Source: a virus (lineage: Duplodnaviria > Heunggongvirae > Uroviricota > Caudoviricetes). Taken from it: a stretch of DNA of 64,000 nucleotides. The stretch is from IMG/VR virus record IMGVR_UViG_3300044640_000771; one strand, given 5' to 3'. Positions 4,635 through 38,139 of the stretch are shown one piece after another. Within the stretch, counting starts at the first letter, position 1. The number at the start of each line of letters is the position of its first letter. The notes below the pieces were generated by a model. That model worked only from the letters and a program-made list of their open reading frames with translations. It was not told the DNA's origin and did no database searches. Made by a program: the position numbers and the translations under genes.

Positions 4635-5057
4635 ATGGCACTAACCAAGAATCAAATCATTTTCAATACTATCAGTCCTTGGGATCATCCTTGTCAGGGT
4701 CAAGATAAGAAGGTACTATTCGTCTGCAGCGCGGGCATCCTACGTTCAGCTACTGCCGCTCGATTGTACTCGCATGTATACAACACCCGTTGTGCAGGTA
4801 GTGAAGACTACGCTCTGATCCCTGTTACACCTGACCTCTTGTTGTGGGCGGATCAGGTGGTGTTTGTCAAGGAAGAAAACTACTGGAGCATCGTCAATCG
4901 ATTTGATCTTGACACGTTTCAAGTAGATGTGGTAATCTTGAACATTGATGACAAGTATGATCACATGGAAGCTGGTCTTGTTGAGTTGTTCAACAGTCAG
5001 TACGAAGAAGTACATCCGGTTATCTATAATCGAATTATCAATAAGGTGAATTCATGA
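4635..5057 (+). CDS. low-molecular-weight protein-tyrosine-phosphatase / arsenate-reductase-like protein
   Basis: N-terminal VLFVCSAGILRSATAA matches the CX5R(S/T) P-loop of the LMW-PTP/ArsC family. Confidence 0.5.
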   Translation: MALTKNQIIFNTISPWDHPCQGQDKKVLFVCSAGILRSATAARLYSHVYNTRCAGSEDYALIPVTPDLLLWADQVVFVKEENYWSIVNRFDLDTFQVDVVILNIDDKYDHMEAGLVELFNSQYEEVHPVIYNRIINKVNS

Positions 5058-5248
5058 ATAACATTCCACAAAATCTGTGCCTGCGAGAACTTGAGCGCTG
5101 GGTATACATTGAGGATATTCAGCCCCTGAGAGGGGTACTTGACTACCATTGGAATCAAGTATTCACAAAAGGGTTTGATCTTGGTGTTGAACATCAGAAA
5201 CAACGTCAGTTGAGAGAAGCTTATTCATCGACGGAGACTTGGAAATGA
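5054..5248 (+). CDS. hypothetical protein
   Basis: 64-aa ORF in an operon. Confidence 0.3.
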   Translation: MNNIPQNLCLRELERWVYIEDIQPLRGVLDYHWNQVFTKGFDLGVEHQKQRQLREAYSSTETWK

Positions 5249-5463
5249 GAAGCAGACCCTTCAAGATTGACATGAAGGATAGACTTTGGGACAAGCGGCA
5301 CTCTATCCATCGAGCCATCTCATACTTGTCTAAACGGTTCTGTGTATTTGTAGGTAGAAAGTTGTTGACAGGCGTAAGGTCTGCGCATAGAATGCCTGCT
5401 GCTAGGAAGTTTAGAACTCAGTTGAGAATTCAACGATATGTCAAAAGGAAAACAAATGACTAA
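5239..5463 (+). CDS. hypothetical basic protein
   Basis: 74-aa ORF rich in Arg/Lys. Confidence 0.3.
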   Translation: MEMRSRPFKIDMKDRLWDKRHSIHRAISYLSKRFCVFVGRKLLTGVRSAHRMPAARKFRTQLRIQRYVKRKTND

Positions 5464-6418
5464 TCAAATCGATGGTTTCAAACCAATGCTTGCCTGCGAC
5501 TGGCACGAAGAAAAGCTTAAATTCCCCTGTATTGTCCAACCGAAGCTAGATGGTGTTCACTCATTGAATCGTCATGGTAAGTGCCTTGGTCGCAGTCTAA
5601 AGTCGCATGAGAATCGCTATGTTACTGAGCAGTTCAGTAAGCCTGAATATCATGGTTTCTGTGGTGAAAAGATTGATGCCGACCTTGGAACTACTCACCC
5701 TGATCTTTGCCGAATTACTTCGGGTAACCTTCGTCGGATTGAAGGTGAACCAAATATTGTTTGGGTGCTATTTGATTATGTAACTGAAGAAACCAAGGGT
5801 CTGGGATATGTACAGCGAATGCACAAATTGGAAGAATACCTTGATTGTCTTGAATCGGATGACTTTGTTCCAGTTGACATTGTAGAATCAACTCTTGTTG
5901 AAAACCTAGAACAACTTCTGGAACTGGAAGAAGAGTATCTTAATCATGGATACGAAGGTATCGTCATCCGCGATCCTAACGCACCTTATAAGTATGGTCG
6001 TTGTGGTAAGACGTTCATGGGTGCATGGCGTGTAAAGCGTTTCATTGAAGAAGAAATCCTTGTTGACAAGATCAATGAAGGTATGCATAATGCAAATGAA
6101 GCAAAGACGAATGAACTAGGTCGAACCGAGCGCAGCACACACCAAGAAAACATGAAACCCAATGGCTTGCTTGGAAACATGGAAGGGACTACAATCAAGG
6201 ATATTCATGATCCGCAATCTGGTGAGCTATTGATTCCCAAAGGTGAACGTGTTACAGTGAGTCCTGGTGAAATGAATCACAAGATGCGAGGGTTCTACTT
6301 TGAAAATCCTAGTGAAATTGTAGGACATGTGATCAAGTTCAAGATGTTCCCGAAGGGTGTAAAAGATAAGCCTCGATTCCCTACATATGTGAGTCATCGT
6401 AATGAAAATGACACTTGA
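5456..6418 (+). CDS. ATP-dependent DNA ligase
   Basis: Adenylation motif I QPKLDGVH (KxDG). Motif GYEGIVIRD. SD AAGGAAAA before the ATG at 5456. Confidence 0.85.
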   Translation: MTNQIDGFKPMLACDWHEEKLKFPCIVQPKLDGVHSLNRHGKCLGRSLKSHENRYVTEQFSKPEYHGFCGEKIDADLGTTHPDLCRITSGNLRRIEGEPNIVWVLFDYVTEETKGLGYVQRMHKLEEYLDCLESDDFVPVDIVESTLVENLEQLLELEEEYLNHGYEGIVIRDPNAPYKYGRCGKTFMGAWRVKRFIEEEILVDKINEGMHNANEAKTNELGRTERSTHQENMKPNGLLGNMEGTTIKDIHDPQSGELLIPKGERVTVSPGEMNHKMRGFYFENPSEIVGHVIKFKMFPKGVKDKPRFPTYVSHRNENDT

Positions 6419-9937: not shown

Positions 9938-10531
9938 ATGAAACACATAAAAGATTACAATGCAATAAATTGGGAAAGCTATTTTTACTATGATGAAACT
10001 TCGCCGAGTAAATTGCGATGGAAAATTGACATTTATAAAGGAATAGGAAGAGTTGCCAAGGTTGTGAGAAAACACGATGTAGCCGGGTCTTTACACAAGA
10101 CTAAACGGTACTGGAGAGTTGTTCTTAACAAATCAACATATGTTGTTCATAGAATAATTTTCAAAATGCAAAATAAAGAATATAATCTGCTAACTGATGA
10201 TTTAATAGATCATATCGATAGAGATAAAACCAATAACTCAATCGATAATCTCAGACTTGTTTGTAACAGTGTTAACCATAGAAACATGAAACTAAGCGTG
10301 AGAAATAAATCAGGAATTACGGGTGTTTGTAGAACAACGAATAAAGATGGAATATCTGTTTGGAGGGTTACCTTTCGTAAGTTAGATAGTACACAGGGTC
10401 AGAAAGTTTTCTCTATAAATAAATACGGGGAAGAAAATGCTAGACAGATGGCAATCGACTATCGTGATAGAATGATTGACGAACTTAATCGGCAAGGTGC
10501 TGGTTATACTGAGAATCACGGAAAGGACTAA
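9938..10531 (+). CDS. HNH homing endonuclease (HNH_3 plus AP2-like), paralog of 727..1314
   Basis: DHIDRDKTNNSIDNLRLVCNSVNH motif. KSGITGVC...WRV AP2-like. C-terminus ENHGKD. Inserted between the primase-helicase and polymerase genes. Confidence 0.8.
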   Translation: MKHIKDYNAINWESYFYYDETSPSKLRWKIDIYKGIGRVAKVVRKHDVAGSLHKTKRYWRVVLNKSTYVVHRIIFKMQNKEYNLLTDDLIDHIDRDKTNNSIDNLRLVCNSVNHRNMKLSVRNKSGITGVCRTTNKDGISVWRVTFRKLDSTQGQKVFSINKYGEENARQMAIDYRDRMIDELNRQGAGYTENHGKD

Positions 10532-20330: not shown

Positions 20331-21281
20331 ATGCTAGTTCTTATTGGTTCCCGCGCTATCGAATACTGGTGCAATGACTTCCGAAAAGTCGGTCCTGACT
20401 ATGATTTCATTGGTACAAAAGAAGAATTCAAGAGTTTGGTTACTCGTCTGATTCAAGACGGAAATCGCCTAGTTGAATTGAAATTCATCGAGGGAACCAA
20501 TAAGGCATACGCTAAGTTCAGCAAGTTCATCATTGACATGAGTATGGTTGATGTTGACGGTCCTCTGCGAGAGTCTGATGCGGAAATCTATGAGTATGCC
20601 AAGCATCGGTTTGGTTGCATTTTTCTGAAAGAACTTGACAACTACTTCATGCTTTCTACTTTGGAACTCAACTTTGTCTTGAAGGAATCCCATAAGTTCA
20701 AGAAGAATAGTCCGCACTTCCTCAAGACGATGCAAGACCTAGAGTTTCTTCGCAGGTTTACAAATGAAAACATTATCAATGTGTATCTTCGTGAAGTACT
20801 TGACCGACGCAAGAAAGCAACGTACAATTACCAGCATCCTAAGTTGAACACCAGCAAACAGGAGTTCTTCACGGATTCTGTACCGTATCAGTACGATCAT
20901 GATACAATTCATGAAGCGGTTAAGCACTTGGACAAACCTGCGTATCAGTACTACATGCAAGACGATGCCCAGGTAATGTGCAGTAGCGACAAGTTCTTCG
21001 CGCAGCCTGAGATTGTTCGGTTGTATGGTGTACTTGAAGAAAGCTATGTACTTGCCCTGGAACGTGCTGTGATTCCACACGGTACTAATCCAGAACGTGC
21101 ATTTGAGATTGCACTGGAGAAAGTTTGCACCAGCATTACCAGCGGATGGTTCCGTGAGTATGCTTACGAGAACTACTTCAAGGTGAAGAATATGTACCAC
21201 GCTAGCTATGTTGACAAGTTCAACCGAGCCTTGTACAATAACCAGATCAAACCATTTAAGGAGAGTTCTTATGCCAAGTAA
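20331..21281 (+). CDS. hypothetical protein with N-terminal nucleotidyltransferase-fold signature
   Basis: VLIGSRAIEYWCNDFRKVGPDYDFIG matches hG[GS]-x-DhD of KNTase-type minimal NTases. About 250 aa of unknown C-terminal region. Confidence 0.45.
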   Translation: MLVLIGSRAIEYWCNDFRKVGPDYDFIGTKEEFKSLVTRLIQDGNRLVELKFIEGTNKAYAKFSKFIIDMSMVDVDGPLRESDAEIYEYAKHRFGCIFLKELDNYFMLSTLELNFVLKESHKFKKNSPHFLKTMQDLEFLRRFTNENIINVYLREVLDRRKKATYNYQHPKLNTSKQEFFTDSVPYQYDHDTIHEAVKHLDKPAYQYYMQDDAQVMCSSDKFFAQPEIVRLYGVLEESYVLALERAVIPHGTNPERAFEIALEKVCTSITSGWFREYAYENYFKVKNMYHASYVDKFNRALYNNQIKPFKESSYAK

Positions 21282-21744
21282 AATTCAAACAGTCTACGGT
21301 AACGTACTTGACTTTACTGAAAATGCTGTTATGATTCATGGCTGCAATTGTCAGGGTGTGATGGGTAGTGGTGTTGCGTTGGCTGTACGGGAGAAGTATC
21401 CTGATGTGTTCGCTGATTATCGCACGTTGTGCAACCTCTACGCCGACGATTCCTCTCGATTGCTAGGTGACAATCAGTATGTGTATGTGTCGGAGAATCA
21501 TGTTATTGTGAATGCAATGACGCAAGACTTCTTCGGTGGAGGTAGGCAGATCAATTACGAAGCTATCTATCTGTGCTTCGAACGTGTAAATCAGTTCTTG
21601 ACAAACGTTGCATTTGAAGCTACACTCTACTTTCCAAAGATTGGTGCAGGACTCGGTGGTGGTAACTGGGAAATCATCAAGACAATTATTGAACAAACCG
21701 TTGACCAGAAGTTCAATCCGACTCTGGTAGAATTTTCAGGTTGA
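21271..21744 (+). CDS. macro domain (ADP-ribose binding/processing) protein
   Basis: VMIHGCNCQGVMGSGVALAV and IGAGLGGGNWEII match macro-domain glycine-rich motifs. TAAGGAG SD before the ATG at 21271. Confidence 0.7.
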   Translation: MPSKIQTVYGNVLDFTENAVMIHGCNCQGVMGSGVALAVREKYPDVFADYRTLCNLYADDSSRLLGDNQYVYVSENHVIVNAMTQDFFGGGRQINYEAIYLCFERVNQFLTNVAFEATLYFPKIGAGLGGGNWEIIKTIIEQTVDQKFNPTLVEFSG

Positions 21745-21769
21745 CTTCATCGTGTGAATCGGTTATAAT
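21741..21769 (+). promoter_or_regulatory. consensus sigma70-type promoter (TTGACT-N17-TATAAT) upstream of the SSB gene
   Basis: TTGACT at 21741-21746, exact 17-nt spacer, TATAAT at 21764-21769. About 100 nt upstream of the 21867 start. Confidence 0.7.
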
Positions 21770-21866: not shown

Positions 21867-22478
21867 ATGCTAAAACAACTAGAAGGTACTCTCGTTTACG
21901 TCATGTGCGACAAACCCACTCCTTGCTATGAAAAGGATAAGGGTACAGAATGGAAAGCTGGTATCGTACTAACTGACGAAGATACGGTTGATCTATTCGA
22001 TGAGACTTATCCTAAGCAGTCTGCTAAGAAAGTCAAGTCAAGCGAATTTGAAGAAATTTACAAGTGCAAGCTGCCAGAAGGTGCAGGTAAGAACGTATGG
22101 GTCATCACCCTGAAGAAGAATACCAAGCTATCAAACGGTGAAGATGTACCTGATAAGTATCGTCCGCACGTATTCGAAGTAACTGAAAGCGCAGGTAAGA
22201 AAGTAATGACCGACATTACCTTTACCAAGCTGGCTGGTAACGGATCAAAGGGTATTCTTACCATTGATCACTGGGCTGGTGAAAAGGGTAACGTAGCTCG
22301 TCTGAAGAACGTAGCTGTTACTGAACTGATCGAATATGTCAAGCCTGAAGGTTCAGACTACAATCCTGGTGATGAGTTTGATTTCGGTGATGCTCCTGCT
22401 CCAAAGGCTGAAGCAAAGAAGCCAGCTGCGAAGAAAGCAGTGAAGAGTGATGCAGAAGACGATGGCGCTCCCTTCTGA
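21867..22478 (+). CDS. ssb: single-stranded DNA-binding protein
   Basis: 203 aa with a lysine/alanine-rich linker and acidic C-terminal tail ending DDGAPF (SSB-type C-terminus). Strong promoter upstream. Confidence 0.65.
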   Translation: MLKQLEGTLVYVMCDKPTPCYEKDKGTEWKAGIVLTDEDTVDLFDETYPKQSAKKVKSSEFEEIYKCKLPEGAGKNVWVITLKKNTKLSNGEDVPDKYRPHVFEVTESAGKKVMTDITFTKLAGNGSKGILTIDHWAGEKGNVARLKNVAVTELIEYVKPEGSDYNPGDEFDFGDAPAPKAEAKKPAAKKAVKSDAEDDGAPF

Positions 22479-22600
22479 TGTGATTAAAACCACGTAGAGA
22501 AATCTACGCAGGATTAGCTGGTTACTAAGGTTCCTAGGGACTGAATGTGGTAGAATTCCAGCAAAGACATACAATTAGCCCTGATGTATGTTACTAATTA

Positions 22601-22677
22601 GCGTCCTTAGCTCAGAGGATCAGAGCAGTGGTCTTCTACACCATAGGTCGGGAGTTCGAATCTCTCAGGACGCACCA
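22601..22677 (+). tRNA. tRNA-Arg (anticodon UCU)
   Basis: Hand-folded cloverleaf. Acceptor GCGTCCT/AGGACGC, D-stem GCTC/GAGC with GG loop, anticodon loop CTTCTAC, T-loop GGGAG-TTCGAAT-CTCTC, CCA encoded. Confidence 0.85.
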
Positions 22678-22684
22678 GAACATT

Positions 22685-22770
22685 GGGCAACTGACCAAGT
22701 GACAAATTGGTACAGTCGGCAGATTCAAAATCTGTGGTTTTTCCCGGTTCGATTCCGGGGTTGCCTACCA
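22685..22770 (+). tRNA. aberrant tRNA-like element (tRNA-Leu CAA-like; possibly a pseudo-tRNA)
   Basis: Acceptor GGGCAAC/GTTGCCT plus A plus CCA. T-arm CCCGG-TTCGATT-CCGGG. Anticodon arm GCAGA-TTCAAAA-TCTGT. Leu-type D-arm GAC-AAATTGGTACA-GTC. However, 7 extra nt (ACCAAGT) follow position 9 and the variable region is only 7 nt. Confidence 0.45.
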
Positions 22771-22777
22771 GATCAAC

Positions 22778-22900
22778 GGGAGCGCAAGGTCATTCCTTGC
22801 ATTTATGGAAAGTAATTTTGTGAGTGTGTAGAACTGCCAAATGCCTAGGAATGAAGGTGAGACTGCACAAAACCAAATCCATATCTAGCTGCTCCCACCA
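22778..22900 (+). ncRNA. candidate small structured RNA with tRNA-like acceptor end
   Basis: 123-nt spacer begins GGGAGCG and ends TGCTCCC-A-CCA (7-bp terminal helix plus discriminator plus CCA). No T-loop or anticodon arm recognisable. An internal hairpin CAAGG-TCATT-CCTTG is present. Confidence 0.25.
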
Positions 22901-22906
22901 AACAAC

Positions 22907-22980
22907 GGGGTCTTAATTCAATGGTAGAATATTCGGCTTTTACCCGATCAACATAGGTTCGATTCCTATAGGCCCTACCA
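22907..22980 (+). tRNA. tRNA-Lys (anticodon UUU)
   Basis: Acceptor GGGGTCT/AGGCCCT. D-arm ATTC-AATGGTA-GAAT. Anticodon loop CTTTTAC. T-arm ATAGG-TTCGATT-CCTAT. CCA encoded. Confidence 0.85.
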
Positions 22981-22990
22981 AATCCAGATT

Positions 22991-23467
22991 ATGAAAACAA
23001 TACTTAAAATATACGGTCCATACCAACATGAAAATGGTAGATTATTTGTAGTAGCAAAATACAGTGACGGTAGTAAAGGAAGTATTTCTTATCCTAAATA
23101 CTTAATGGAATTACATTTGGGTAGAAAACTACTACCAAATGAAACAGTCGATCATATCGATAGAAACTATCTCAATAATGAAATATCAAACCTGCAGATT
23201 TTAGATAGATCGTTACATGTAAAGTTAGACGTAAAGCGACGACAAGACGAAATCTTAACTTGTATTTGGTGTAATGCAAATTTCTTAAAGACAGGAAAAA
23301 TTTTATCCACCCAAAACTCCAGAATAAAACATACAGCAGGCCCGTTCTGCAGTAAAAAATGTTCAGGAAAATACGGAGCATCAATTCTTCATGATGGCAT
23401 CGAGCCACTAGCAAGAGTGCAAAACCCTAAGAACTATTATCAATTAGATAAATCCTCAGTAGTTTAA
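22991..23467 (+). CDS. HNH homing endonuclease embedded in the tRNA cluster
   Basis: VDHIDRNYLNNEISNLQIL HNH_3 motif. C-terminal Cys cluster (CIWC...CSKKC). Starts 11 nt after tRNA-Lys. Confidence 0.75.
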   Translation: MKTILKIYGPYQHENGRLFVVAKYSDGSKGSISYPKYLMELHLGRKLLPNETVDHIDRNYLNNEISNLQILDRSLHVKLDVKRRQDEILTCIWCNANFLKTGKILSTQNSRIKHTAGPFCSKKCSGKYGASILHDGIEPLARVQNPKNYYQLDKSSVV

Positions 23468-23543
23468 TGGTAAAACAGCGGAATTATACCCCGTAGCGCC
23501 AGATAAGCGGCTAATATTGGTTCGAATCCAGTTTGAGGAACCA
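23453..23543 (+). tRNA. aberrant tRNA-like element (class II length, anticodon ambiguous, UAU if the canonical fold is imposed)
   Basis: Acceptor TCCTCAG/TTGAGGA plus A plus CCA. D-arm GTTT-AATGGTA-AAAC. T-arm ATTGG-TTCGAAT-CCAGT. The middle 39 nt fold poorly (A-C mismatch closing the anticodon stem, 21-nt extra arm). The 5' end overlaps the HNH stop codon. Confidence 0.4.
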
Positions 23544-23564
23544 CAATATCGAAAGGAGTAAGCA

Positions 23565-24167: not shown

Positions 24168-24174
24168 ACACACG

Positions 24175-24210
24175 ATCCCTACTGGTTAATTCCGGTAGGG
24201 ATTTATTCTT
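24175..24210 (+). terminator. rho-independent terminator
   Basis: ATCCCTAC...GTAGGGAT stem with loop containing TTAATTCC, then TTATTCTT. Confidence 0.6.
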
Positions 24211-36635: not shown

Positions 36636-37285
36636 GTGTTATTTAGATACTCAAACGTAGCCGTAGCATTCTTGTTATCAAGTCTGCAATTCTCAGGAAT
36701 ACCCATAATTGTTGCTGTACCACGAAGGACATTATTGGTATCTCTGTTATTCGCTACCGTAATTCTAACCTTCATATAGTTTGAAGGAGTAGGCAATGTT
36801 ACGTTTACATCACCAGCACCTGTTAGAATATAGTGCCAGTTATGCAGAGCAGTAAATGCCAAAGAACTTGTAGTTTCCTTAGCAATTTCACCGTTCAATA
36901 GTTCCCAGGCTGTTGTCAGCGCAGGATCAACTACGGAACCAGTGATATTAGACTTTGCCCTATACGTTAGGAAGCTAGTAGGACTCCAAGTACACTGACC
37001 TTCCGTGTAGTTAGTTCCAGAGACCCACTTAGGAGCGCTTGAAGCATTGCTGGCGGATACCGCACTAGCTTGTGCAGCGTTTGCACTTGCTTGAGCATTG
37101 TTTGCATATGTCAGTGCAGCATCTTCACTATCTGCCGCTGCGATTTGACTGTTGTTTACATCTGTCGCCAAAGAGTTTGCTTCGGTTGCAAATGTAGGTA
37201 ATGCGCTAAGGAAAGCGTCTGCTTCGTTAGCAAACGCAGAAGGATTCGACCTACTTGGTGGGGTCGGTAGGGCACTTATCGGCAT
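36620..37285 (-). CDS. tail fibre protein (proximal part)
   Basis: Ala/Ser/Asn-rich N-terminus (AANNAQASANAAQASAVSASNASSAP) typical of fibre shafts. Adjacent to the distal fibre. Confidence 0.5.
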   Translation of the reverse strand: MPISALPTPPSRSNPSAFANEADAFLSALPTFATEANSLATDVNNSQIAAADSEDAALTYANNAQASANAAQASAVSASNASSAPKWVSGTNYTEGQCTWSPTSFLTYRAKSNITGSVVDPALTTAWELLNGEIAKETTSSLAFTALHNWHYILTGAGDVNVTLPTPSNYMKVRITVANNRDTNNVLRGTATIMGIPENCRLDNKNATATFEYLNNTWRIT

Positions 37286-38139
37286 GTTGACTCCTTAACG
37301 GGGTATCCCGCATTATCTTCATTTAATTTGTTAATCTCCATATTCCTTCTTTCCGTTGCAAGCTTTAAGGCTTCAGATTCACCTAATTTCTTGCAGCTAA
37401 ATCTAACTGTGTGTTGCTTTCTATTCAAATCGTACCAAGTGGCGCAATAGTAATCTAAGGTTCCTGTCCTACTACCGTTTGGCACAGTAATTTTTACGAC
37501 TCCAATGGAATCGTTATTTATGTGCTTATTAGTTTTTCTGGAATTAAGAGCAGGCGTAGATAGTTCAAGATTTGATAGTGAATTATTAAAAGGATTAGTA
37601 TCTATATGATTTACAATCCATTTTTCATTGAAGTCTTGGTTTGAAATCGCCATGATAACTCTGTGACAATAATACGTTCTACCTTTCAACACGATTCGCC
37701 AGCACTTCGGTTTCCCGTTGGTACGAAAATACTTGTTTCCCGCTACACCATCTTTTCTTGCACTCAACACGTTATTTTTGGTTCCAGAATAAATATCTAC
37801 TTTCCAGCGCAACCCAGAAGGACTACTTTCATCGATGTAAAAATATTTACTAAATTCTTCTGGGCAAATAATCTTGGTTTCCATAGAAAGTTTACTATTA
37901 ACCAGTTTCCAATCAACAGGAGGATTATCTATTAGTTTTCTCTCGATTGAAAGTGCTTCCTCTTCACTCACATTCTCGACATATTTCTCGATTAGATAAC
38001 CACCTGATTCCGAAACAATACTATTCCATTTGACGCTTCTGTTATGCTTTGTAATCAACCTATTCCCAACACCCTTACCAACGTAAAAAACTTCATTGGT
38101 ATCTTTTCTTCGGTGGAGATAAACATAATAATCGTTCAT
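37276..38139 (-). CDS. chimeric homing endonuclease: N-terminal GIY-YIG plus HNH_3/AP2-like region
   Basis: YVYLHRRKDTNEVFYVGKG GIY-YIG motif, then SPSGLRWKVD...HRVIMA...NHIDTNPFNNSLSNLEL and IGVVKITV, as in the HNH_3/AP2 ORFs at 727 and 9938. Confidence 0.7.
   Translation of the reverse strand: MNDYYVYLHRRKDTNEVFYVGKGVGNRLITKHNRSVKWNSIVSESGGYLIEKYVENVSEEEALSIERKLIDNPPVDWKLVNSKLSMETKIICPEEFSKYFYIDESSPSGLRWKVDIYSGTKNNVLSARKDGVAGNKYFRTNGKPKCWRIVLKGRTYYCHRVIMAISNQDFNEKWIVNHIDTNPFNNSLSNLELSTPALNSRKTNKHINNDSIGVVKITVPNGSRTGTLDYYCATWYDLNRKQHTVRFSCKKLGESEALKLATERRNMEINKLNEDNAGYPVKESTCR

Follow-up and report, generated by a model that had tools for sequence, protein, structure and literature searches.

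The window analyzed here, a 64-kb stretch of tailed-virus DNA from IMG/VR (record IMGVR_UViG_3300044640_000771), carries a transfer RNA (tRNA) island of ∼1.07 kb between an SSB-like gene and a series of small open reading frames (ORFs). The island comprises, in order and all on the plus strand, tRNA-Arg(UCU), a tRNA-Leu(CAA)-like unit (element B), a 123-nucleotide (nt) stem-closed RNA-like unit ending in ACCA (element C), tRNA-Lys(UUU), an HNH_3 gene, and tRNA-Ile(UAU) (element D). All five RNA units encode an ACCA end followed by a similar short A-rich spacer. We compared the island with phage records and IMG/VR loci, numbered L001 to L170. A window-wide ARAGORN search returned three tRNA genes, every one of them in the island: Arg(UCU), Lys(UUU), and Ile(UAU). 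The tRNA-Arg (22601–22677) and tRNA-Lys (22907–22980) genes are canonical, apart from a U27.U43 mismatch in the latter, and both encode CCA. They score 68 and 64.6 bits against the Rfam tRNA family RF00005, each across model positions 1–71; membership was taken as a covariance-model score of at least the gathering threshold of 29 bits across the full model. Both programs thus agree with the clean folding of these two tRNAs reported in the first-pass annotation, a model's reading of the sequence without database searches.

Element B (22685–22770, 86 nt) is a tRNA-Leu(CAA) that lacks the long variable arm. Its sequence, GGGCAAC-TG-[ACCAAGT]-GAC-AAATTGGTACA-GTC-G-GCAGA-TTCAAAA-TCTGT-GGTTTTT-CCCGG-TTCGATT-CCGGG-GTTGCCT-A-CCA, reads directly as a 7-base-pair (bp) acceptor stem, U8, G9, a 7-nt insert ACCAAGT after nt 9 (22694–22700), a Leu-type 3-bp D stem GAC/GUC closing the 11-nt D loop AAAUUGGUACA, a clean anticodon arm with the loop UUCAAAA (anticodon 22726–22728), seven variable nt GGUUUUU (22736–22742), a perfect T arm, and an encoded ACCA end. 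The anatomy first proposed for this element, with its sound acceptor and T arms, Leu-type D arm, CAA anticodon arm, insertion after nt 9, and missing long variable arm, therefore stands on direct reading. So does the expectation that software would not fold B as a standard tRNA. ARAGORN makes no call for it in the window, and the Infernal search against RF00005 yields a local match (22701–22759, model positions 10–63) of 25.3 bits, below the threshold. When the 7-nt insert is removed in silico, ARAGORN calls a 79-nt tRNA-Leu(caa). The core length of a tRNA at nt 9–10 is normally fixed, and bacterial class II tRNA-Leu carries a long stem-loop variable arm, usually of at least 13 nt; a leucine tRNA without this arm is unusual in bacteria and phages. 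With seven variable nt, B falls outside class II.

We then placed B among its relatives. A degenerate pattern for its D and anticodon arms retrieved 105 IMG/VR stretches and identified a parent family of tRNA-Leu that lacks the long arm. Insert-free copies have a 6–7-nt variable region and are called tRNA-Leu by ARAGORN, and the normal 2-nt link between acceptor and D stem is present in 101 of the 102 that were parsed, the exception (L116, reported as 8 nt) being a parsing artefact. An insert-free tRNA-Leu of 79 nt is annotated in a cultured Pseudomonas putida phage (PP496413). This short tRNA-Leu(CAA) family, 77–79 nt long, occupies more than 100 contigs (IMG/VR loci L018 and L032–L134; for example, L018 8147–8477), and L018 also carries short tRNA-Leu genes with the anticodons UAG and UAA. 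The short family has a 2-nt link (nt 8–9) and a D loop ending in GGUAAA; the B-type link is 9 nt long and its D loop ends in GGUACA.

The insert-bearing subfamily is rare, with eight distinct sequences, found in phages and metagenomes only: those of the window, L146, L148, L152, L153, L167, L108 (identical to L135 and L138), and L169 (identical to L170). A blastn search with B alone among 50,697 phage records recovered no insert-bearing copy, only the insert-free tRNA-Leu of Pseudomonas phages. A metagenome scan added one true copy, the L138 sequence already known from L108, together with three chance matches, and a scan of 185,579 representative bacterial and archaeal genomes gave a single chance match that is not tRNA-like. 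The copies in L148, L152, L153, and L167 lie in related islands. The copy in L146 is identical to that of the window at 85 of 86 positions, in a genome that is only ∼78% identical. Elsewhere, the L108 copy sits at a different genomic position behind its own TTGACA-17-TATAGT promoter, and that of L169, found by the IMG/VR pattern scan on a 141-kb contig, has the anticodon UAA.

Aligned, the eight B-type sequences pair in 99% of stem cells, with double changes in 16 of 24 pairs, and differ in their acceptor, anticodon, and T stems; the observed covariation was reached in none of 500 shuffles. The D stem alternates between GAC/GUC and GGU/GCC. U8, A13–A15, G18G19, and A73-CCA are invariant, and the anticodon is either CAA or UAA. 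B has the elements of leucine identity, which are unchanged in all eight sequences: A73, A14 together with U8, and a D arm of Leu type, with a 3-bp stem and a large loop containing G18G19. A73 and A14 are reported to specify leucine identity in E. coli, and mitochondrial leucyl-tRNA synthetase (LeuRS) charges a tRNA-Leu without a long arm (PMC9976931). A covariance model (R1) separates the subfamily, whose members score 98–112 bits, from ordinary short tRNA-Leu (49–68 bits). Across 12 related islands, B-type and class II tRNA-Leu(CAA) are mutually exclusive: the former occurs in the window, L146, L148, L152, L153, and L167, the latter, 83–93 nt long, in L149, L150, and L151. Because the stems covary, the core is invariant, and the two kinds of tRNA-Leu(CAA) do not co-occur, B bears, on this comparative evidence, the marks of a working gene in the slot of the UUG decoder and not those of a pseudogene. 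Since standard finders miss them, B-type tRNAs are probably under-annotated.

Three arrangements of the insert fit all eight B-type sequences, with nearest-neighbor energies ∼1–4 kcal/mol apart: it may be unpaired, which is compatible with the cloverleaf, pair with the D loop, or pair with the first four variable nt. In the pairing with the D loop, U8, G9, and ACCAA oppose UUGGU(A)CA; every cell is pairable and changes are one-sided only. ViennaRNA favors this fold by 0.7–4.4 kcal/mol (−24.5 to −27.8 kcal/mol, against −23.4 to −24.4 kcal/mol for the cloverleaf), and it would account for the GGUACA of B-types, in which C invariably takes the place of the A in the GGUAAA of more than 100 ordinary copies. 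The pairing with the variable region (G9:U, A:U, C/U11:G/A53, and C12:G52) is likewise possible in every cell and is about energetically neutral. It includes the sole compensatory change that touches the insert, at 11:53, which is U:A in five sequences and C:G in three. Modeled in this way, the helix would stack straight onto the 3′ strand of the B anticodon stem.

Element D (23453–23543, 91 nt) is called tRNA-Ile(tat) by ARAGORN and belongs to the Rfam tRNA family at full length (51.7 bits, model positions 1–71). Its body is of class I, with a 4-bp D stem, a 7-nt D loop, seven acceptor pairs, five T-stem pairs, and an encoded ACCA end. Within a 21-nt variable region (23495–23515), an extra hairpin, CGC-CAGAUAA-GCG (23497–23509), combines a 3-bp stem with a 7-nt loop. 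The anticodon arm, with the loop AUUAUAC (anticodon 23485–23487), has four pairs and one A.C mismatch (23482/23490) where relatives have five clean pairs. Of the earlier description, the good acceptor, D, and T arms and the 21-nt extra arm hold, and the poorly pairing anticodon region does not, given the four pairs and the calls by ARAGORN and Rfam. Hand folding had overdrawn its aberrance: to standard software, D is a tRNA-Ile(UAU) with a long variable arm. We also considered D as an allo-tRNA and rejected this, its acceptor/T arrangement being 7/5 and not 8/4 or 9/3.

D, too, belongs to a family. Members include an annotated tRNA-Ile of Acinetobacter phage vB_AbaS_qsb1, 19 ARAGORN-called copies among 20 IMG/VR contigs, and copies in L142 and L145. 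Many of the IMG/VR copies are prophage-derived, and they usually lie beside tRNA-Arg(UCU). D-type tRNAs are widespread in phages and prophages, where they are annotated plainly as tRNA-Ile; a scan of the same 185,579 representative bacterial and archaeal genomes found none. The family is defined by a 7/5 cloverleaf, the anticodon UAU, and a 21-nt variable region with the hairpin N-CG-N/CAGAUAA/N-CG; the window sequence fits this definition and needs no gap when aligned with 20 members. All 21 aligned sequences, and L142 and L145 besides, carry UAU rather than the CAU of the lysidine-dependent tRNA-Ile2. Acceptor and T stems are wholly different between members yet always paired, and nt 8–63, including the variable region, are nearly invariant. 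In an alignment of nine sequences, 97.4% of cells are paired and 15 pairs show double changes. The hairpin stem covaries, with A:U in seven sequences and C:G in two, while its CAGAUAA loop, which was part of the pattern used to find the IMG/VR members (the Acinetobacter phage, L142, and L145 came by other routes), is unchanged throughout. U12-A23 is invariant in the family, and D has A73 and A14. Two phages with 26 and 20 tRNA genes also encode tRNA-Ile(GAU) and one CAU tRNA, and the D-type gene is their sole candidate for decoding AUA. D therefore counts as a genuine tRNA, in the simplest reading a tRNA-Ile(UAU) independent of lysidine. As a separate observation, the CAGAUAA loop (window 23500–23506) shares GAUAA with positions 34–38 of the tRNA-Ile(GAU) loop UUGAUAA in phages carrying both (L018 10391–10465; L030 7769–7843). 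Our search of the open-access literature found no description of either the B-type or the D-type architecture. While the kind of locus is known, these are two conserved, non-canonical architectures that are apparently undescribed.

Between B and tRNA-Lys, element C (22778–22900) occupies the entire spacer (22771–22906). A GGGAGC/GCUCCC terminal stem is followed by ACCA, the 3′ end lies 6 nt before tRNA-Lys, and a 6-bp hairpin (22784–22800) abuts the 5′ strand of the terminal stem. Stacking of these helices could give 12 bp, as many as in a tRNA acceptor/T minihelix. The minimum free energy is −32.4 kcal/mol (fold z = −1.98), and a terminal stem plus NCCA at both spacer edges arises in 224 of 20,000 dinucleotide shuffles (1.1%), or in 4.2% with ACCA held fixed. 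The free-standing acceptor-like RNA claimed at this site is thus present as a stem and an ACCA end, and is only moderately beyond chance. Element C is absent from L142, a relative that is 94–97% identical. An exact 17-mer scan of IMG/VR gave ten matches, all by chance, and a permissive blastn-short search against all related islands gave words of 10–15 nt only. We rejected C as a transfer-messenger RNA or split tRNA, as it has no T arm and gives no ARAGORN or Rfam signal. A promoter within C was also discarded: TGTGTAGAAC resembles the leader element described below but has neither its final T nor the TGn register. By analogy, C may be a stable RNA of the T4 type, or the ends of a destroyed tRNA gene.

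The HNH_3 gene (22991–23467; 158 amino acids) is free-standing, and Pfam recognizes the domain in residues 40–74 at 25.9 bits, a narrow margin over the cut-off of 24.8. Its G+C content is 33%, against 42% for the window. The embedded position noted at first sight is confirmed, as is its overlap with D: the stop codon (23465–23467) falls within the D loop of tRNA-Ile, and the 15 nt shared with the tRNA hold the last five codons and stop region. L142 carries the gene at the same site with two amino-acid differences. In L151, whose tRNA-Lys is 93.6% identical, the next tRNA begins 2 nt on with no ORF between, which shows that the HNH gene is polymorphic for presence and absence. Other nuclease ORFs sit at other island junctions, and three times independently, in the window, L145, and L167, such an ORF ends in the 5′ part of the next tRNA. 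That of L145 (3520–3948) is HNH_3-like by Pfam and that of L167 (1378–1761) is an endonuclease ORF with a CxxCH motif; both end inside tRNA-Lys. From its sequence, we read the window gene as that of a putative free-standing homing endonuclease, with cleavage and homing inferred. Elsewhere, the genome is rich in homing-endonuclease-like genes: the window holds three more HNH_3 genes (727–1314 and 37276–38139 on the minus strand and 9938–10531 on the plus strand), two of them with AP2 DNA-binding domains. In the IMG/VR relative L004 (312–1638), an HNH-like ORF (647–1156) interrupts a DNA polymerase homolog, which is thereby divided between two ORFs.

Comparison with related phage tRNA clusters reveals a mosaic in which B-type and D-type units recur in other islands and C does not. 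Where the window reads Arg-B-C-Lys-HNH-Ile, L142 reads Arg-[reverse HNH cassette]-Lys-HNH-Ile, L146 Arg-Met-Lys-B, L145 Arg-Ile-HNH-Lys, and L151 Arg-Met-[PD-(D/E)XK ORF]-Lys-Leu; in distant relatives there is no island and the small ORFs follow the SSB-like gene directly. The window and L142 are 94–97% identical on both sides of a 527-nt HNH_3-like cassette, encoded on the opposite strand, that replaces B and C. This cassette is flanked in L142 by a 10-nt direct repeat, ACCAGAATAA, made of a tRNA 3′ end and spacer (2206–2215 and 2739–2748). Breakpoints between relatives fall at tRNA ends. tRNA-Lys(UUU) and tRNA-Arg(UCU) are the commonest tRNA genes in the related islands, and in most relatives it is tRNA-Arg(UCU) that comes after the SSB-like gene.

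The canonical tRNAs show variation of their own. tRNA-Lys is identical in L142. The tRNA-Arg genes of the window (22601–22677) and L142 (2133–2208) differ in a mosaic patch that covers the D loop, the whole anticodon stem (GUGGU/ACCAU in the window, GUCCU/GGGAU in L142), and position 38 (C vs. A). A37-C38 ends three of the four anticodon loops in the window: Arg CUUCUAC (22633–22639), Lys CUUUUAC (22938–22944), and Ile AUUAUAC (23483–23489). In L146 (2005–2079), L145 (3940–4002), and L108 (4862–4936), tRNA-Lys(UUU) has the unusual T arm GGGAUCGUUGGCCC instead of the usual GGUUCGAAUCC type.

Directly 5′ of the island, the SSB-like gene (21867–22478) encodes a protein ending in DDGAPF. Immediately 3′ of its stop codon lies a hairpin with a CGTAGA-GAAA-TCTACG core (22490–22511), conserved in L142; because it has no U tract on the plus strand, and our terminator scan lists it as a minus-strand site only, it is not an intrinsic terminator in the plus direction. 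An extended −10-like element, TGGTAGAAT (22548–22556, plus strand), was read directly from the sequence ∼45 nt 5′ of tRNA-Arg and is identical in L142. The surrounding module (22521–22567) is 79% identical to L153 3533–3580, where it lies 5′ of the first downstream ORF, and TGGTATAAT motifs are repeated in the island of Curvibacter phage P26059A. We take TGGTAGAAT as a candidate internal promoter of the island. A strong promoter-like site, TTGACT-17-TATAAT (21741–21769), precedes the SSB gene, and the next plus-strand terminator-like site in the window scan is at 24174–24203.

Among cultured phages, Limnohabitans phage DC31 and Curvibacter phage P26059A come closest in their SSB-like proteins (42%–45% identity), with metagenomic relatives reaching 95%. 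Synteny is shared over a DUF7275 gene, a Macro-domain gene, the SSB-like gene, small ORFs, and an exonuclease. In the window, a DUF7275/DUF7277 protein and the Macro-domain protein are encoded 5′ of the SSB-like gene (20331–21744), and relatives also have NAMPT/NAPRTase and rIIB-like genes nearby. A megablast search of the region against GenBank phages gave zero matches, and sensitive blastn returned only generic tRNA matches and the Acinetobacter phage tRNA-Ile. In Rfam at E ≤ 10, neither C nor the leader had a credible match, and B had none besides its sub-threshold tRNA match; "Plastid-ycf2" and snoRNA matches at this level were dismissed as antisense-tRNA or low-complexity noise. The genome of Curvibacter phage P26059A (L001, KY981271) has an unannotated gap of ∼1 kb 3′ of its SSB-like gene (4657–5647), with tRNA-Arg(UCU) at 4746–4821 and an ARAGORN "tRNA-Pyl(cta)" at 5023–5121 whose "acceptor" is actually a stem of ∼15 bp. 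Several more RNAs in the gap have terminal stems of 11–15 bp, some followed by GGTATAAT promoter-like motifs; Rfam matches tRNA-Arg only.

Altogether, we consider it likely that this is a mosaic tRNA island, shuffled by endonucleases at a recombination hot spot 3′ of the SSB-like gene of a freshwater phage, and that its tRNAs are working decoders. The island would be transcribed with or after the SSB gene, from the candidate promoters at 21741–21769 and 22548–22556. Host tRNA-processing enzymes (RNase P and 3′ exonucleases) would be expected to cut the precursor into units, because all five share an encoded ACCA and A-rich spacers. Four of the units would decode the A/U-rich codons AGA (Arg), UUG (Leu), AAA (Lys), and AUA (Ile), with B presumably charged with leucine and D with isoleucine. 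D, a tRNA of class I body whose variable region has taken up a conserved 13-nt hairpin, would serve as a lysidine-independent AUA decoder. HNH-type nuclease genes, inserted exactly at tRNA boundaries, would drive a cassette-like exchange of tRNA modules, as SegB does in T4. Element C would most likely be a by-product or passenger of this shuffling, matured like a tRNA through its acceptor-like end.

Several observations weigh against this reading. B goes unrecognized by both ARAGORN and Infernal, and its insert falls in a tightly packed part of the canonical tRNA core. The thermodynamically favored fold, in which the insert pairs with the D loop, hides G18G19 and, if dominant in vivo, would disrupt the tRNA elbow. 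In the window, AGA makes up 27% of Arg codons, TTG 18% of Leu, AAA 37% of Lys, and ATA 5% of Ile, so the need for D is not obvious; codon supply, judged from the phage's own usage, accounts well for Arg and poorly for Ile. The homing activity of the HNH protein is deduced from a Pfam score just 1 bit above the cut-off. Element C has no homologs in GenBank phages, IMG/VR, or related loci, and its statistical support is modest.

We weighed several other accounts of the odd elements. The first-pass annotation had left it open whether they are pseudo-tRNAs, unusual functional tRNAs, or scaffolds. Decay into functionless pseudo-tRNAs, with B, D, and C damaged by insertions and deletions during endonuclease-driven recombination, would fit the failure of B in ARAGORN and its score below the Rfam threshold, the A.C mismatch in the anticodon stem of D, and the makeup of C, which resembles tRNA ends around unrelated sequence and is missing from the closest relative. 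We find it improbable for B and D, since their stems change in a compensatory manner, in eight and nine sequences, respectively, while the anticodon loop, A73-CCA, and the odd insert or hairpin stay fixed, and since B-type copies hold the tRNA-Leu(CAA) slot and never occur together with normal class II copies. For C alone, it is quite possible. A role as scaffolds, in which the elements would be integration (attP-like) targets of recombination or entry sites for RNase P or RNase E rather than translation adaptors, is the least probable of the accounts that we weighed. All units do end in ACCA with similar spacers, breakpoints between relatives lie exactly there, and C has an acceptor-like end with no tRNA body. 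Against this, a scaffold has no need of conserved anticodon loops (CAA or UAA; UAU) or a full cloverleaf, and relatives have their islands among replication genes of lytic-type phages. No signs of an integration scaffold turned up, although no integrase search of the whole window was made. Of the three options for B and D, the evidence favors unusual functional tRNAs, as their compensatory stems, fixed anticodon loops, and A73-CCA suggest. Both have four stems upheld by compensatory changes across homologs, a 7-nt anticodon loop with U33 and a purine at position 37, and a discriminator followed by CCA.

Accepting B and D as tRNAs, a different amino acid could still be attached to D: its long arm and A73 might make it a substrate for a synthetase of class II-type tRNAs (LeuRS or, less likely, SerRS or TyrRS), so that a residue other than isoleucine is inserted at AUA, as has been reported for the nematode nev-tRNA-Ile(UAU). 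Class II UAU tRNAs do exist as nev-tRNAs and are leucylated in vitro (PMC3333845, PMC4300185), UAU is common among allo-tRNAs (PMC5389517), and D has both A73 and A14. Yet the class I body, the 7/5 arrangement, and the 3-bp arm with its 7-nt loop are unlike Leu, Ser, or Tyr arms and unlike 8/4 or 9/3 allo-tRNAs; U12-A23 is invariant; and D-type genes are the only AUA decoder beside tRNA-Ile(GAU) in near-complete tRNA sets, which fits ordinary isoleucine decoding. Recoding thus seems highly unlikely. The pressure behind the unusual shapes may alternatively come from host defenses that target tRNAs, with the island tRNAs adapted as poor nuclease substrates or as decoys. This overlaps with the mosaic of working decoders, as the RNAs would still be functional tRNAs. 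Phage tRNAs are reported to evade tRNA-targeting defenses through changes in the anticodon loop (PMC10264068) and to counter retron and other effectors (PMC11555353). The B insert, the D hairpin, and the A37-C38 loops could act against anticodon- or variable-loop nucleases that deplete host Leu, Ile, Lys, and Arg tRNAs. In line with this, C38 is found in the Arg, Lys, and Ile tRNAs of the window, tRNA-Lys(UUU) and tRNA-Arg(UCU) are the genes most common in these islands, and the rarity of ATA in the phage weakens a pure codon-supply case for D; no sequence feature, however, connects either extra element with a site of nuclease cleavage. Defense as the explanation of the architectures strikes us as rather unlikely, while escape from such systems, by analogy with these reports, could credibly act as a further or an alternative pressure (PMC10264068, PMC11555353, PMC13096335).

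A bolder proposal, which we put forward tentatively and with more doubt than conviction, is that B-type and D-type form two previously unrecognized structural classes among phage tRNAs, with the usual rules of tRNA class exchanged between them and their extra elements acting as functional handles. Under this proposal, and in the same tentative spirit, the long arm of B would have been replaced by a short helix between insert and variable region, and D would have gained an invariant hairpin that displays the GAUAA of positions 34–38 of tRNA-Ile(GAU). If so, the handles would recruit or redirect synthetases or modification enzymes, for instance allowing IleRS to accept UAU without lysidine, or would shield the tRNAs from defense nucleases. 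Whether or not they are distinct classes, the two types are natural test cases of how far synthetases, RNase P, and the ribosome tolerate changes in the tRNA core and variable arm, and they bear on how phages decode AUA without lysidine and on whether tRNA-targeting defense systems select tRNA shape. The related islands, for their part, offer a clean natural example of nuclease genes placed exactly at tRNA boundaries and of swapped tRNA modules.

Homing endonucleases are a familiar feature of phage tRNA islands; the locus as a whole is thus ordinary, and its interest lies in the B-type and D-type tRNAs. In the tRNA region of T4, eight tRNAs are accompanied by the homing endonuclease gene segB and the stable RNAs rnaC and rnaD, whose function is still unknown (PMC9697503). 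SegB drives the preferential inheritance of neighboring tRNA genes (PMC2330249); it recognizes a motif in the tRNA T arm and can even lead to the amplification of adjoining tRNA genes (PMC2330249, PMC13096335). The likeness to T4 suggested in the first-pass annotation holds for the layout, in that a free-standing homing endonuclease gene lies between two tRNAs of the cluster and non-tRNA RNAs of ∼120–140 nt occupy tRNA-like slots. It does not extend to sequence: blastn-short of C against rnaC and rnaD gave chance words of 7–8 nt only and no homology. The ends of rnaD (119 nt; GGCGCACCA, GGCGC-ACCA) and C (GCUCCCACCA, GCUCCC-ACCA) resemble each other in layout alone, and rnaC, at 139 nt, has a T arm where C has none. 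SegB is a GIY-YIG enzyme, whereas the nuclease here is HNH_3 and its ORF ends in the next tRNA. The tRNA-Leu and tRNA-Ile of T4, moreover, are structurally ordinary.

Outside phages, partial parallels exist for both architectures. Mitochondrial tRNA-Leu(UUR) also lacks the long arm and is recognized by LeuRS through A73 and A14 (PMC9976931), both of which B keeps; it differs in being organellar, in having no insert between nt 9 and 10, and in its unrelated sequence. Nematode nev-tRNAs and bacterial allo-tRNAs combine a long variable arm with anticodons other than those of Leu and Ser, commonly the UAU that D has (PMC3333845, PMC5389517). D is set apart from them by its 7/5 arrangement (8/4 or 9/3 in allo-tRNAs), its class I-type D arm, its 3-bp arm with a 7-nt loop, and its phage-borne origin. 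The closest counterparts of both are phage tRNAs. The short tRNA-Leu(CAA) of Pseudomonas phage vB_PpuM-Amme-3 (79 nt), with more than 100 counterparts in IMG/VR, shares with B the 3-bp D stem, the D loop AAAUUGGUA.A, CAA, the 6–7-nt variable region, and A73-CCA; the Pseudomonas phage form also has the T arm CCCGG/CCGGG of B and a similar acceptor stem. The short form has a 2-nt link and A at D-loop position 21, the B-type a 9-nt link and C at 21, and ARAGORN calls the short form only. For D, the 91-nt tRNA-Ile(UAU) of Acinetobacter phage vB_AbaS_qsb1 and of numerous IMG/VR contigs of prophage origin has the same layout, with the 21-nt variable region, the CAGAUAA loop, UAU, and often a neighboring tRNA-Arg(UCU). 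Its acceptor and T stems differ from those of D, its hairpin stem is CGA/UCG rather than CGC/GCG, and its anticodon stem is fully paired where D has one A.C mismatch.

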